64,000 nt of DNA from an uncultured Actinomycetota bacterium (GCA_963789855.1 CAWBMM010000017.1:111910-175909); one strand, 5' to 3'. Numbered from the stretch's first letter, positions 1-10,311 are shown. A program made the numbers and translations. The notes: generated by a model not told the origin, from the sequence alone.

Positions 1-1240
1 GGATCGTGGCGGGGATGACGGGGTACCCGCCGGAGCTGTTGGACCTGGATCTGGACCTGGAGGCCGATCTGGGGGTGGACACGGTCAAGCAGGCCGAGGT
101 GTTCGCGGCGGTGCGGGAGCGGTTCGGGGTGGAGCGGGACGACAACCTGGCGTTGCGGGAGTTCCCGACGTTGGCGCACGTGATCGGCTGGATCCGGGAC
201 AAGACCGGTATCCAGCCGGTGGCGCCGGTTGCTGCGCCGGTGGCGCCGGCGGCGCCGGTGGCGCCTGCGCCGGTGGTGCCGGAGGTCGTGCTGTCGCCGG
301 TTCCGGTGCCGATGAGGTGACCGATGCGGTGGTGGGGATCGTGGCGGGGATGACGGGGTACCCGCCGGAGCTGTTGGACCTGGATCTGGACCTGGAGGCC
401 GATCTGGGGGTGGACACGGTCAAGCAGGCCGAGGTGTTCGCGGCGGTGCGGGAGCGGTTCGGGGTGGAGCGGGACGACAACCTGGCGTTGCGGGAGTTCC
501 CGACGTTGGCGCACGTGATCGGCTGGATCCGGGACAAGACCGGTATCCAGCCGGTGGCGCCGGTTGCTGCGCCGGTGGCCGCCGGTGGCCGCGGCTGCGC
601 CGGTGGTGCCGGAGCCGTGCTGAGGTCGCCGGTTCCGGTGGCCGATGAGGTGACCGATGCGGTGGTGGGGATCGTGGCGGGGATGACGGGGTACCCGCCG
701 GAGCTGTTGGACCTGGATCTGGACCTGGAGGCCGATCTGGGGGTGGACACGGTCAAGCAGGCCGAGGTGTTCGCGGCGGTGCGGGAGCGGTTCGGGGTGG
801 AGCGGGACGACAACCTGGCGTTGCGGGAGTTCCCGACGTTGGCGCACGTGATCGGCTGGATCCGGGACAAGACCGGTATCCAGCCGGTGGCGCCGGTGGC
901 TGCGCCGGCGGCCGCCGGTGGCGCCCGGTGGCCCGGCTGCGCCGGTGGTGTCGGAGCCCGCGCTTGTGGTCGTCGCCGGTTCCGGTGGCCGATGAGGTGA
1001 CCGATGCGGTGGTGGGGATCGTGGCGGGGATGACGGGGTACCCGCCGGAGCTGTTGGACCTGGATCTGGATCTGGAGGCCGATCTGGGGGTGGACACGGT
1101 CAAGCAGGCCGAGGTGTTCGCGGCGGTGCGGGAGCGGTTCGGGGTGGAGCGGGACGACAACCTGGCGTTGCGGGAGTTCCCGACGTTGGCGCACGTGATC
1201 GGCTGGGTCCGGGAGAAGACCGGTATCGCAGCCCGGTGGC
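1..1240 (+). repeat. Four tandem, near-identical coding repeats of about 330–348 bp, each one ACP domain plus an Ala/Pro/Val linker
   Basis: The string gatcgtggcggggatgacggggtacccgccggagctgttggacctggatctggacctggaggccgatctgggggtggacacggtcaagcaggccgaggtgttcgcggcggtgcgggagcggttcggggtggagcgggacgacaacctggcgttgcgggagttcccgacgttggcgcacgtgatcggctgg recurs at about 5, 339, 670 and 1018 with only a handful of differences. Confidence 0.9.
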
Positions 1241-3800
1241 AGCTGCCGGTCGCCGCGCCGGAAGCCGGCGTCGCCGGCGCCGTGGCCCAGGTGCACCCGA
1301 CGACCGTCGCCGGCGACCTCGACGCCGTCGACCGGATGCCGCGGCGGGTTCCCGTGCCGGTGCTGCGCCCCGCGCTCGGGCAGTGCCTGCCCACCGGCGT
1401 CACCCTGGGCGAGGGTGCCCGGGTGATCGTGATGCGCGACCAGGGCGGCGTCGCAGACGCACTTGTCGACCGCCTGACCAAGGCCGGTGTCACCGTGCTC
1501 GGGCTCGACCCGGCACGACCACGCGATGCCCTGCTGTCGGCGGTCGAGGACTGGCGAGCCGAGGGTCCGGTGACCGGTGTCTACTGGCTGGCCGCCCTGG
1601 ACGACGAGGGTCCGCACGAGGCCCTGGACCTCCCGGCCTGGCAGGAGGCGCTGCGCCGGCGGGTCAAGACCCTCTACGCGACGATGCGGCGGCTGTACGA
1701 CGACAGCCCGTTCCTGGTCACCGGGACCAGGCTGGGCGGGTACCACGGCTACGACGACGCCGGCGCCACCGCGCCGATGGGCGGGGCGGTGACCGGCTTC
1801 GCCAAGTCGTACAAGAAGGAGCGTCCGGAGGCGCTGGTCAAGGCGGTCGACCTGCCGGTCAACCGGAAGACGGCGCAGCCGGCACAGGCCGCTGATCGAC
1901 GAGACGCTGCGCGACCCGGGATGCGTCGAGGTGGGGCACGTCGACGGTCTGCGCTGGGGCGTCGGGCTCGTGGAGCGGCCGTTCCCACCGCAAGGTGAGC
2001 CCGCTCCGGACGCGCTCACGTTGGGGCCGGACAGTGTCGTCCTGGTCACCGGAGCGGCCGGCAGCATCGTGTCGGCGATCACGGCCGACCTGGCGGAGGC
2101 GACGGGCGCGACCTTCCACCTGCTCGACCTGACGCCGACGCCCGACCCTGCCGACCCGGACCTGCGTCGCTACCTCGAGGACCGGGACGGGCTCAAGGCC
2201 GACCTCGCGCAGCGGATCCGAGGACCGGGGTGAGCGGCCGACCCCGGTCGCCATCGAGACGGAGCTGGCTCGGTTCGAGCGGCTGGCCGCCGCGCTGGCC
2301 GCCATCGAGGCGGTCGAGGCCGCCGGTGGAACGCCGCACTACCACTCCGTCGACCTCACCGACGCCGACGCGGTCGATCGCGTCCTGGACGCGGTGCGAG
2401 CCACCAGCACCCGGGTGGACCTGCTGCTGCACGCCGCCGGCCTGGAGATCAGCCAGGCGCTGCCGGACAAGGAGCCGGCGGAGTTCGACCTCGTGTTCGG
2501 CGTGAAGAGCCGACGGCTGGTTCAACGTCCTGCACGGCGCCGGCGACCTGCCGATCGGCGCGACGGTCGTCTTCTCCTCGGTGGCCGGCCGGTTCGGCAA
2601 CGCGGGGCAGACCGACTACAGCGCCGCGAACGACCTGCTGTGCAAGGTCACCAGCAGCTTCCGCCGCACCCGCCCGGGAACCCGGGCGCTCGCCCTCGAC
2701 TGGACGGCGTGGGGCGGGATCGGCATGGCGACCCGCGGGTCGATCCCGAAGATCATGGAGATGGCCGGCGTCGAGGTGCTGCCCGCGGAGGCCGGCGTGG
2801 CCTGGATCCGCCGGGAGCTCACGGCGCACGCCTTCCGCGGCGAGGTCGTCGTGGCCGGCGAGCTGGGCCTGATGGCCGGCGGCGACCACCCGAGCGGCGG
2901 GCTCGACCCGGCGTCGCTGACGGTCGCCGGCTGCCGGTCCGATGGTCGGCGAGGTGGTCGAGGCCGACGTCCACGACGGACTGGTGGTGCGCAGCCACGC
3001 TCGACCCCGCGGCGCAGCCGTTCCTGGACCACCACCGCATCGACGGGACGGCGGTCCTGCCCGGAGTGATGGGGCATGGAGGCGTTCGCCGAGGCGGCGC
3101 GGCTGCTGGTGCCCGACTGGCACGTCGTCGGGGTGGAGGACGTCGACTTCCGGGCTCCGGTGAAGTTCTACCGGGACGAGCCGCGGACGCTCACGGTCAC
3201 TGCCCTGCTGCGGCCCGACGGGGCGGACCTGCTCGCCGAGTGCCGGCTCACGGCGGACCGGGTGCTGCCCGGCAGCGACGCACCACAGCGGACGGTGCAC
3301 TTCACCGGCGCCGGTGCGGCTGCGGGCGGAGCCACCCGAGCCGAGGACGACCGAGCCGCTGGAGCGCGCGGAGGACGCGCCGGTCGTGGCCCGCGAGGAC
3401 GTCTACCGGCTGTACTTCCACGGACCGGCGTACCAGGTGGTCGCCGAGGGCTGGCGGGACGACGGTACGGCGGTCACGCGGCTCGCTGACGCGACTGCCC
3501 GCCGAACCACGATCCGGCGGATCGCCGACCGTCCTCGCTCCCCGCCTGGTGGAGCTGTGCTTCCAGACCGCCGGGCTGTGGGAGGCCGGCCGGACCGGTC
3601 GGCTCGGGCTGCCCGCCCACGTCGACGCGGGTCCTGGTGGTCGGCGCACCCCCGCCCGACGGGGCGACCGGACGGGTGTACGCGGTGGCGCGTCCCGTTC
3701 CTGCCGGCGACGGCGAGGCGTTCGACTGCACCGTGCTCGACGGCGACGGACGGGTGATCCTGCGGGTCGAGGGCTACCGCACCGTCGCCCTGCCGGGGGC
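1..3800 (+). CDS. PfaA-like PUFA/secondary-lipid synthase (polyketide synthase), 3' portion only: 4 tandem ACP domains, then KR, then DH. The 5' end lies outside the window and the reading frame is interrupted by several frameshifts.
   Basis: Three consecutive ORFs (6..320, 317..1000, 928..1998) repeat the motif [63 protein letters not shown] four times, which matches the PfaA ACP fold (cf. Shewanella [30 protein letters not shown]). KR Rossmann signatures follow ([25 protein letters not shown]; [12 protein letters not shown]). A PfaA-type DH hot-dog region comes next ([25 protein letters not shown]; [13 protein letters not shown]; [17 protein letters not shown]). Frame changes occur near 310, 1000, 1990, 2230, 2590, 3070, 3300, 3500 and 3630. 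Confidence 0.8.
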
Positions 3801-9599: not shown

Positions 9600-10311
9600 G
9601 CAGGAAGGCGCCGTCGCGTCGCCACCAGCCGGACATCGTCCCGCCCTCGACGGTCGTCACCGCAAGGGCACCCCAGCCATCCCGGTCCGCTGCCGGATCG
9701 GGCTCGTGCACGGTGACCTCCACCGACCGGGTGTCCCGGCGCAGCCCGGTGCGCAGCACCTTGAGCGCGCTCTCCTTGGCGGACCACAGGAGGTTCGCGG
9801 CCGCGTCCCGCTCGTCGCCGTCCGCCTGTGCCGCGACGAAGTCCTGCTCGCCGTCGGTGAGGAAGTCGCTGACGAACCCGCGGGAGCGAGGCTCGACGAT
9901 CTCGAGGTCGCACCCCACCCGGTTGAGATCCGGGCCGACGACGCAGACGGCCCACCCGGCACGGTCGGTCAACGAGACGTCCAGCCCGAGCGGTCGGCCG
10001 TCGACGAGCACGTACGGGGCCCCGCTGGCGCGGTTGGCCACCTCGATGCCGGCCAGGTCGCCGGCACCGGTGGCCCGGCCGGTGCTGGCAGCCACGGCCT
10101 GCTTGCCGACCCAGCGGCGCAGCAGGTACTCGGACCGGCGTTTGGTGAACCGCATGCCCGCCGCCCGGTGGGCCTCGCGGGGGGTCAACCAGCTGTCGTC
10201 GGCCGGCAGCTCGTGCTCGCCGCGGGCCAGCCACCTCAGCGGCGCCTGCACCGGGCTCGCCTGCTCGGCGGGAGCGGCACCCGGGAGGAGCGGCTGGTTC
10301 CTGTTCCCCAC
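9466..10311 (-). CDS. Sfp-type 4'-phosphopantetheinyl transferase (PfaE-like)
   Basis: 281-aa ORF with two PPTase half-domains. Contains GAPYVLVDGRPLGLDVSLTDRAGWAVCVV and the W/KEA motif LWSAKESALKVLRTG. Lies convergent to the PKS/carboxylase genes. Confidence 0.75.
   Translation of the reverse strand: MGNRNQPLLPGAAPAEQASPVQAPLRWLARGEHELPADDSWLTPREAHRAAGMRFTKRRSEYLLRRWVGKQAVAASTGRATGAGDLAGIEVANRASGAPYVLVDGRPLGLDVSLTDRAGWAVCVVGPDLNRVGCDLEIVEPRSRGFVSDFLTDGEQDFVAAQADGDERDAAANLLWSAKESALKVLRTGLRRDTRSVEVTVHEPDPAADRDGWGALAVTTVEGGTMSGWWRRDGAFLLTIAADVPIRPPVQLPGSARLTEAVPRHSWVGQPIVPDQAADPG

Follow-up and report, generated by a model that had tools for sequence, protein, structure and literature searches.

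The locus described here occupies nt 1-10311 of a 64,000-nt stretch of DNA from an uncultured Actinomycetota bacterium (GCA_963789855.1 CAWBMM010000017.1:111910-175909; the whole stretch is referred to below as the window), and it encodes, in this order, the 3' part of a PfaA-like polyketide synthase (PKS), a single-chain acyl-CoA carboxylase, and a convergent Sfp-type 4'-phosphopantetheinyl transferase (PPTase). Its domain order comprises 3.7 copies of an acyl carrier protein (ACP)-like unit, a ketoreductase (KR), and a dehydratase (DH), then the biotin carboxylase (BC), biotin carboxyl carrier protein (BCCP), central, and carboxyltransferase (CT) regions of the carboxylase, and finally the PPTase on the opposite strand; Pfam matches, alignment, and Tandem Repeats Finder (TRF) agreed with the domain content, order, and coordinates given in an initial annotation of the window. 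Our interpretation, held with moderate confidence, is that this locus belongs to an actinobacterial operon for lipid synthesis that is conserved and of which the 3' two-thirds are visible; it would be functional in the organism but is recorded here with ~27 single-base errors. Since the window has a G+C content of 73%, raw lists of open reading frames (ORFs) are uninformative, and frames were recovered with plots of third-position G+C (GC3), a codon-usage Viterbi procedure, and banded protein-to-DNA alignment permitting frameshifts, with the proteins of locus L001 as query. L001, from a soil Actinomycetota metagenome-assembled genome (MAG), is the closest relative that we found, and it served as the reference for alignment and for Pfam searches; its ORFs are intact and encode a PKS that extends past the 5' limit of the retrieved locus, a 1,860-aa carboxylase, and a convergent PPTase.

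Only the 3' part of the PKS gene, consisting of ACP-like units, KR, and DH, is visible in the window, on the plus strand. The gene opens with a tandem array of four ACP-like units (nt 1-1240), delineated by TRF (a 333-nt repeat, 3.7 copies, 95% matches), by motif scan, and by alignment to solved ACPs, with the PP-binding family matched in the L001 orthologue; the units lie at approximately nt 3-206 (truncated by the window edge), 308-541, 641-874, and 988-1221, and each carries one copy of a 13-residue motif (nt 60-98, 395-433, 728-766, and 1075-1113). The KR region, which spans approximately nt 1324-2930 according to translations and alignment to L001 (Pfam KR and adh_short in the latter), contains the NADPH-binding motif VTGAAGSIV (nt 2045-2071) and the catalytic DYSAAND (nt 2614-2634). 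The PS-type DH (nt 2936-3865; Pfam PKS_DH_N and PS-DH in L001, and alignment) is the C-terminal domain, with its HxxxGxxxxP motif at nt ~3030-3065 and the PKS stop codon, TGA, at nt 3863-3865. The combination of tandem ACP-like units, KR, and PS-DH sustains the earlier description of this protein as PfaA-like.

The carboxylase start codon, GTG at nt 3862, overlaps the PKS stop (GTGA), and from there the frame-corrected gene continues on the same strand for 1,862 codons. It is colinear throughout with its L001 counterpart, an intact ORF of 1,860 aa in which Pfam identifies Biotin_carb_N, CPSase_L_D2, Biotin_carb_C, Biotin_lipoyl, ACC_central, and Carboxyl_trans (E 1e-13 to 9e-66). The BC domain (nt 3862-5208) was placed by alignment and matches bacterial biotin carboxylases in the PDB at E ~1e-115; it is complete, with the glycine loop GGGGRG (nt 4409-4426), the catalytic lysine region QRRNQKVIEE, and the segment EVNTRLQVEHPVTE (nt 4790-4831), which contains the E-x-N-x-R motif, so that the motifs of an active BC are all present. 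The BCCP domain (nt 5487-5870; alignment, and a Biotin_lipoyl match in L001) carries the biotinyl-lysine motif ESMKMES at nt 5754-5774, the MKM of which is kept in nearly all relatives, and is followed by an ACC_central-like region (nt 5871-7388; alignment, and PF08326 in L001 and in database homologues). The CT domain (nt 7389-9461) stands in an unbroken frame and matches PF01039 at E 9e-30; its best PDB matches are the CT domains of eukaryotic acetyl-CoA carboxylases (ACCs; E 6e-20 to 1e-10), with bacterial beta subunits at E 1e-7 or weaker. It belongs to an intact 818-aa ORF at nt 7143-9596 that matches Carboxyl_trans. Alignment of CT with its relatives stops at nt ~9452-9461, and the window frame remains open to a stop at nt 9597-9599, ~45 codons further on; the true carboxylase stop is uncertain, because a frame of that length would run ~130 nt into the 3' end of the PPTase gene on the other strand. 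Next to the PPTase stop there is a TGA in another frame, so one further indel error near nt 9455 is possible.

The PPTase gene (nt 9466-10311, minus strand) is an intact ORF that matches PF01648 at E 3e-17 and shares 72% identity with its L001 counterpart over one high-scoring segment pair. The encoded protein is ~270-281 aa long, carries VGCDLEIVE and WSAKESALK, and is covered by PF01648 over its C-terminal half, and thus has the size and the G-x-D-x-E and W-x-x-K-E-(A/S)-x-x-K motifs of Sfp-type (group II) PPTases; sequence similarity to PDB entries is negligible. PF01648 membership, size, and motifs support the Sfp-type class but not the narrower PfaE-like label given earlier, a subgroup of PUFA-specific PPTases that P0, P1a, and P1b motifs are said to set apart (PMC3098273). 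In this family, S..DRAG stands where Sfp presumably has ISHSG.

Neither the PKS nor the carboxylase is an intact ORF in the window, the longest ORF within nt 1-9600 being that of 818 aa, and this heavy breakage had gone without mention in the initial annotation. In the GC3 frame plot, the coding frame of the plus strand shifts at intervals of a few hundred bases up to nt ~7200, is steady over nt ~7200-9450, and gives way to the minus-strand gene up to nt 10311. Frameshift-aware alignment to L001 resolves 25 breaks between nt 1891 and 7370, of which 23 consist of one extra base. Eleven fall in the KR-DH part (nt 1891-3805; nine of one extra base, two being two-base skips), namely at nt 1891, 2222, 2511, and 2929 in KR and at nt 2996, 3072, 3313, 3489, 3524, 3630, and 3805 in DH. 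The carboxylase accounts for the other 14, every one a single extra base: in BC at nt 4369, 5015, and 5076; just 5' of the BCCP (nt 5209-5486) at nt 5227, 5285, 5331, 5449, and 5477; and in the central region at nt 5943, 6166, 6581, 6699, 6892, and 7370. Two further changes of frame, near nt 291 and nt 952, were recognized by frame tracking in Ala/Pro linkers of the ACP array. The earlier view that these are single genes stands for the carboxylase as a single polypeptide once its frame is corrected, and is not confirmed for the sequence as recorded, which has 27 breaks; colinearity with the L001 ORF also excludes a split into separate accA/accD-type genes after correction.

If the breaks were real, the PKS and carboxylase would be pseudogenes in a genome that is losing the pathway, with the PPTase and CT still open by chance, and the patchiness of the breaks along the window, with 27 in 7.4 kb and none in nt 7370-10311, could be taken in that sense. 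We nevertheless regard this as very unlikely. The corrected frames contain no stop in 2,824 codons (1,862 of the carboxylase and 962 others), their GC3 stays at ~0.9, and identity to L001 is ~80% throughout, at the same level in the broken BC (81-87%) and BCCP (80%) as in the intact CT (84%). Gene decay in bacteria is biased towards deletions, whereas 23 of the 25 aligned events are +1 insertions. Unrelated genes are split as well: in a transporter gene at nt 40213-42329 (plus strand), the two halves, each with an MMPL domain, are read in different frames that overlap (nt 40468-42329), and codon-usage frame tracking finds ~25 switches between 53 and 62.6 kb (nt 53320-55491 and 57168-62615, both minus strand). 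Given the lack of stops, the undiminished identity, the near-uniformity of insertions, and the splitting of other genes, the frame breaks are, with high probability, assembly or sequencing errors. By simple count, approximately half of the 14 carboxylase insertions (nt 4369-7370) adjoin GCGC or CGCG, for example GGCGCGAG, GGCGCTAC, and TCGCGCCG, and only two clearly lie inside a homopolymer run (CCC); this context could reflect context-specific base-calling or polishing error. The frame-switching stretch at 53-62.6 kb, where cobT-like and CbiQ-like genes are located, has a G+C content of 77-78%. In databases, many PKS homologues end prematurely within the ACP array, which fits contigs breaking in 95%-identical repeats and may explain why the window starts where it does.

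To place the locus among its relatives, 80 genome loci were retrieved with the CT domain as query, and nine more through protein look-ups and a collection of annotated genomes. A gene of the ACP-KR-DH type lies directly 5' of the carboxylase in 67 of the 69 loci with enough upstream sequence, and of the 81 loci with downstream sequence, 73 have a PPTase gene no more than 2.5 kb beyond the carboxylase, convergently in 71. The PKS stop and carboxylase start overlap or are 7-70 nt apart in relatives, and in L001 the carboxylase ATG again overlaps the PKS stop. Among the taxa represented are Mycobacterium paraffinicum, Actinoplanes, Nucisporomicrobium, Spirillospora, Planobispora, Nonomuraea, Kineosporia, Nostocoides, Nocardioidaceae, and the acidimicrobial Ilumatobacteraceae. 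Carriers of the module that can be cultivated include Nonomuraea gerenzanensis, Actinoplanes nipponensis NBRC 14063, Nostocoides vanveenii JCM 15591, Kineosporia sp. R_H_3, and Mycobacterium paraffinicum DSM 44181. The comparison across genomes that the initial annotation had recommended thus upholds the co-occurrence of this carboxylase type with the synthase, as well as a convergent and dedicated PPTase; at the same time, the counts of 67/69 and 73/81 make the arrangement a norm of the family rather than an oddity of the window, and the same order, pfaA-ACC-pfaE, had already been noted for Koribacter (PMC3098273), so that, contrary to the earlier description, the arrangement is not unusual within its family.

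In relatives, the complete PKS comprises ~3,000-3,100 aa with the architecture KS-AT-KS-ACPn-KR-DH, KS and AT denoting ketosynthase and acyltransferase; the KS and AT that the initial annotation had looked for upstream are seen there, in the same gene, and those of the window synthase would accordingly lie beyond the window edge. The first KS of the relatives shows DAACAS and two histidines, and the AT, with GHSLGE and HAFHT, is of the malonyl type. The second KS (residues ~1290-1560 of the L081 protein) keeps its cysteine in 60 of 61 loci (NAACAS, NSACAS, or NAACSS; NAACAS in 55 loci) together with both histidines, and since Cys-His-His is kept we read it as a ketosynthase rather than a chain-length factor (CLF); the actinobacterial synthases therefore appear to have two catalytic ketosynthases. 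Domain searches detected no enoyl reductase (ER) domain in the actinobacterial synthase, and no KS, AT, or NMO-type ER was found elsewhere in the 64-kb window.

Directly 5' of the PKS, all six relatives with visible upstream sequence encode a 565-572-aa acyl-CoA dehydrogenase with a C-terminal extension like that of very-long-chain acyl-CoA dehydrogenase (VLCAD). The genes lie at 2834-4537 in L081, 2462-3652 in L082, 2918-4048 in L083, 1999-3717 in L084, 3445-5136 in L085, and 3203-4870 in L089, the last being from a complete genome, that of Nonomuraea gerenzanensis. The gap to the PKS is ~20-100 nt in all six, including the distant Ilumatobacteraceae, which lack an electron-transfer flavoprotein (ETF) gene; an ETF and an Fe-S/CCG oxidoreductase are encoded further upstream in three of the six. 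The description of the locus as self-contained omitted this gene and has to be widened accordingly. No PfaB-, PfaC-, or PfaD-like genes were found in the 64-kb window or within 10 kb in L081-L085 and L089. Two potential off-loading enzymes, both absent from the window, were seen near relatives of the synthase: a WS/DGAT wax-ester/diacylglycerol acyltransferase in one MAG (L082, 19479-20942, minus strand), the gene of which overlaps the PPTase gene start, and a PlsC-type acyltransferase near the synthase of Desulforapulum autotrophicum (L087, 7227-8150, minus strand).

The carboxylase resembles SACE_4237 of Saccharopolyspora erythraea, an essential homodimeric enzyme that acts on both acetyl-CoA and propionyl-CoA (Livieri et al. 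2019, PMC6491548): both are single chains of ~200 kDa from actinomycetes with BC, BCCP, ACC-central, and eukaryote-like CT regions. They differ in that the window protein is linked to a PKS, whereas the literature presents SACE_4237 as a locus of one gene on which fatty acid synthesis depends; the neighboring genes of SACE_4237 are not given in the papers that mention it. The single-chain long-chain acyl-CoA carboxylase type was considered and rejected, as it forms a separate CT group in Livieri et al. (PMC6491548) and the window CT is nearest to eukaryotic ACC. The shared BC-BCCP-central-CT architecture raises the question of whether the window enzyme might be a general housekeeping ACC of the SACE_4237 type that stands beside the PKS for co-regulation, the more so as the families with SACE_4237 orthologues (Micromonosporaceae, Nocardioidaceae, Kineosporiaceae, Streptosporangiaceae, and Thermomonosporaceae; PMC6491548) coincide in part with the taxa of the present loci, and as two loci, L054 (5773-11175) and L064 (6131-12064), encode carboxylases that are PKS-linked by sequence type, their CTs sharing 70-71% identity with that of the window, but have no PKS or PPTase nearby.

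A tblastn search of the annotated collection for paralogues makes such a housekeeping role rather unlikely. Nonomuraea gerenzanensis encodes both a PKS-linked copy (L089, 5.99-6.03 Mb), which sits in a dehydrogenase-PKS-carboxylase-PPTase module and is 64% identical to the window protein, and a stand-alone copy (L090, 1.74-1.77 Mb), which shares 52% identity both with the window protein and with the PKS-linked paralogue in its own genome but is 77% identical, across orders, to the stand-alone copy on plasmid p174 of Gordonia polyisoprenivorans (L088). These identities (52% versus 64% and 77%) divide the proteins into two paralogous subfamilies, with the window protein in the PKS-linked one, and support the earlier notion of a dedicated carboxylase, as a paralogue distinguished by sequence. 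In addition, in mycobacteria that possess the AccA3/AccD6 housekeeping system the linked copy is found only where the PKS is present too, the carboxylase start codon overlaps the PKS stop, and forms of the enzyme that have lost BC cannot be the sole ACC of a cell. Such BC-dead forms, without the ATP-grasp loop, catalytic lysine region, and E-x-N-x-R, make up ~35 of 79 related carboxylases (~44%; L023 at 6629-12070, L073, L028, L084, L057, L043, and ~30 others), and the set includes the cultured Kineosporia sp. and Nostocoides vanveenii. The missing ATP-grasp segment comprises ~67 residues including the glycine loop, and a few lineages have lost most of BC, yet the biotinyl-lysine motif and CT (68-72% identical to that of the window) are retained, so that BCCP and CT are, by comparison of these sequences, the family-wide conserved core. 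Of the two loci without a nearby PKS, L054 encodes a BC-dead copy, and in L064 the carboxylase gene follows those of a carboxylic acid reductase, a ketopantoate-reductase-like protein, and a transporter of the major facilitator superfamily.

A feature that sets the synthase apart is the residue at the phosphopantetheine attachment position of its carrier units. All four units of the window share one 13-residue motif with threonine in place of the phosphopantetheine serine, and the unit contains no serine at all; in alignment to solved ACPs, the threonine falls on the serine of PigH (DLGVDSI), of mitochondrial ACP (DLGLDSL), and of bacterial ACP (DLGADSL). Threonine occupies this position in 228 of 229 motif instances across the related loci. 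Among the 150 best representatives of clusters formed at 50% identity, 108 carry DLG(I/V)DT(V/I) only and 17 carry only DLGIDSI, the state of canonical PfaA, and no protein in this survey mixes the two within its array. Proteins of the threonine type have the architecture KS-AT-KS-ACPn-KR-DH, some with a fused NMO/PfaD-type ER, and a serine-type representative has a plain KS-AT-ACP8-KR-DH. The threonine type also prevails in the Desulfobacterales, where 116 of 118 homologues are of this kind, among them those of Desulforapulum autotrophicum HRM2, Desulfobacula toluolica, Desulfospira joergensenii, and Desulfoluna butyratoxydans. No mention of threonine-type carriers, nor of the motif strings, was found in the searchable literature.

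It is conceivable, and we propose it tentatively, that these carriers are activated on threonine, and that they represent a large and hitherto unrecognized O-phosphopantetheinyl-threonine family of PfaA-like type I synthases in Actinomycetota and Desulfobacterota which, together with the dehydrogenase, carboxylase, and PPTase, constitutes an autonomous fatty-acid-like synthase in actinomycetes. The contrary explanation, that the threonine repeats are not phosphopantetheinylated and serve as structural or docking repeats beside a separate ACP, or that the synthase is inactive, draws on the absence of the canonical serine from all four copies in the window and from 228 of 229 copies in relatives, on a unit devoid of serine, and on the silence of the searchable literature on a residue that is not a recognized attachment site. 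We judge it unlikely in view of the strict retention of the motif from Actinomycetota to Desulfobacterota with the remainder of the ACP helix-II motif preserved, of a PPTase gene that adjoins in 73 of 81 actinobacterial loci and directly follows the D. autotrophicum synthase gene, and of the fact that no other carrier domain was seen in these synthases. A PPTase motif that tracks the threonine carriers was sought by comparison and none was found; the actinobacterial enzymes have S..DRAG, and the D. autotrophicum PPTase has the canonical ISISHSG.

Among known systems, the nearest are the Type R and Type S clusters. In Type R, as defined by Shulse and Allen (2011; PMC3098273) for Koribacter, Solibacter, Roseiflexus, and Elusimicrobium, a single pfaA-like gene encoding KS-MAT-'CLF'-ACP(3-6)-KR is followed by a PPTase gene, and in Koribacter versatilis a gene for an ACC complex lies between the two, the product being unknown (PMC3098273). 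The Koribacter order, pfaA-ACC-pfaE, is the order found here, and the architecture seen in relatives of the window, with KS-MAT-(KS-like)-ACP-KR in one gene and a PPTase gene thereafter, is that of Types R and S. The comparison with Type R is based on the published description, which does not report it from Actinobacteria (PMC3098273), and reveals differences: the domain that Shulse and Allen call 'CLF' corresponds to a Cys-His-His KS in the actinobacterial clade, and the window family has a full 1,860-aa single-chain carboxylase and an acyl-CoA dehydrogenase before the PKS. Threonine carriers are absent from the account in PMC3098273. Type S is exemplified by Desulfobacterium (Desulforapulum) autotrophicum HRM2 of the Desulfobacterales, which was itself recovered as a homologue with the same motif; it shares KS-AT-KS-ACPn-KR-DH and DLG(I/V)DTVK in every unit, and its PPTase gene lies 4 nt downstream of the synthase gene, but the synthases of HRM2 and its Desulfobacterales homologues have a fused N-terminal PfaD/NMO-type ER, with lengths of ~3,800-4,000 aa, and the cluster includes no carboxylase or acyl-CoA dehydrogenase.

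Canonical polyunsaturated fatty acid (PUFA) synthases (pfaABCD and pfaE in Shewanella, Photobacterium, and Schizochytrium) likewise have a dedicated PPTase, and their PfaA subunit has the layout KS-MAT-tandem ACP-KR-PS-DH; of these features, the ACP-like units, KR, and DH lie in the window, and KS and AT are found only in relatives, where there is an extra KS between AT and carriers. Unlike these systems, the window and the surroundings of the synthase in its relatives are without PfaB, PfaC (KS-CLF and FabA-type DH), and PfaD, and the carriers of this family have DLG(I/V)DTV (Thr) in place of the DLGIDSI (Ser) of canonical PfaA. Because the PfaB/C/D genes and serine carriers are lacking, the window synthase is not a canonical PUFA synthase, and the PUFA analogy drawn earlier breaks down on these two counts as well as on the second catalytic KS. 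Enediyne PKSs (PKSE; SgcE and CalE8) are related to PUFA synthases and, like the synthases considered here, work iteratively with KS-AT-ACP-KR-DH, without ER, and with a PPTase of their own; they differ in having one serine ACP and a fused PPTase domain and in lacking a second KS and a carboxylase. Type M clusters (Frankia and Renibacterium) were rejected on account of their architecture, ER-KS-MAT-ACP2-KR with KS-AT-PPTase and ACP. Literature searches for the gene module of the window returned nothing relevant. The nearest described kind is thus Type R/S, of which the window locus would be an actinobacterial variant that adds a single-chain carboxylase paralogue, a dehydrogenase partner, and threonine carriers.

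The interpretation that emerges is one of a four-gene module consisting of a VLCAD-like acyl-CoA dehydrogenase, an iterative type I synthase, a single-chain carboxylase that would be translationally coupled to it, and a dedicated PPTase. The PPTase would convert the four tandem carrier units to the holo form, a step complicated by the threonine at the attachment position. The carboxylase would make malonyl-CoA from acetyl-CoA, ATP, and bicarbonate by way of the BCCP that it carries itself in biotinylated form, as is suggested by the intactness of its BC, MKM, and CT motifs and by the activity measured for the related SACE_4237; this role in malonyl-CoA supply we infer for the window enzyme. 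The malonyl-specific AT would then load the carriers, and the two KS domains, KR, and DH, domains which are themselves evident in the sequences, would run iterative elongation, with a long-chain acyl "secondary lipid" as the putative product. Any enoyl reduction would have to come from a partner acting in trans, for which the adjoining acyl-CoA dehydrogenase is a speculative candidate, because the Desulfobacterales relatives carry a fused PfaD-type ER instead, a domain that the dehydrogenase may thus replace.

Alternatively, there may be no enoyl reduction, the product being a conjugated polyene or a 3-hydroxy/enoyl chain as made by an enediyne PKSE, and the dehydrogenase an unrelated enzyme of beta-oxidation. 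The actinobacterial synthase does lack an ER domain, the window lacks an NMO-type ER, and the dehydrogenase is accompanied by ETF and Fe-S oxidoreductase in three of six relatives, a typical catabolic set; on the other hand, the fused PfaD-type ER in threonine-type members from the Desulfobacterales suggests that the family normally reduces enoyl intermediates, and the dehydrogenase gene abuts the PKS start in six of six relatives, even where ETF is absent, which leaves this alternative doubtful in our view.

Several considerations weigh against the reading as a functional operon for lipid synthesis. The KS-AT half of the synthase and the upstream gene lie outside the window, and the full module is deduced from relatives that are 64-85% identical. 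The attribution of the frame breaks to error is drawn from comparison of sequences. SACE_4237 was likened to the window protein by its described architecture and may belong to either paralogue group. With ~44% of the related carboxylases having lost the BC motifs, malonyl-CoA supply in cis cannot be the role of the carboxylase across the family. In the part of the cluster that lies in the window, no enoyl reductase, thioesterase, or acyltransferase was identified, and the cluster as a whole likewise yielded no candidate for product release, be it a thioesterase or another enzyme. Finally, activation of the carriers would need threonine as the attachment site: to our knowledge, serine is the only residue documented for phosphopantetheine attachment and threonine is not a known PPTase substrate, and the S36T variant of Escherichia coli ACP is not modified.

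The module is conserved in many actinomycetes of soil, sludge, and freshwater and in some mycobacteria; in genome mining it would receive no label more specific than PUFA- or hglE-like. The coupling of a eukaryote-like single-chain carboxylase paralogue to a polyketide-type synthase would represent a natural precursor supply wired to one megasynthase, and the repeated loss of BC with retention of biotin and CT implies that in those lineages the protein would depend on a partner for any carboxylase activity. Should the threonine be modified, what counts as a substrate of PPTases needs revision, and if it is not, a very widespread synthase family works by an unfamiliar route. The locus also illustrates how comparison that allows for frameshifts can test, and rescue, genes that look like pseudogenes in an error-prone assembly. 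With regard to the remainder of the window, scans of all 64 kb detected neither a tRNA nor any Rfam family that reached its gathering score. Synteny between the window and L001 stops at the PPTase, which places the genes beyond it outside the module; they are ordinary housekeeping genes, and at nt 10327-25229 comprise DUF3291, methionine aminopeptidase (map), panB, nadE, a GAF-GGDEF-EAL protein, glnA, and glnE.

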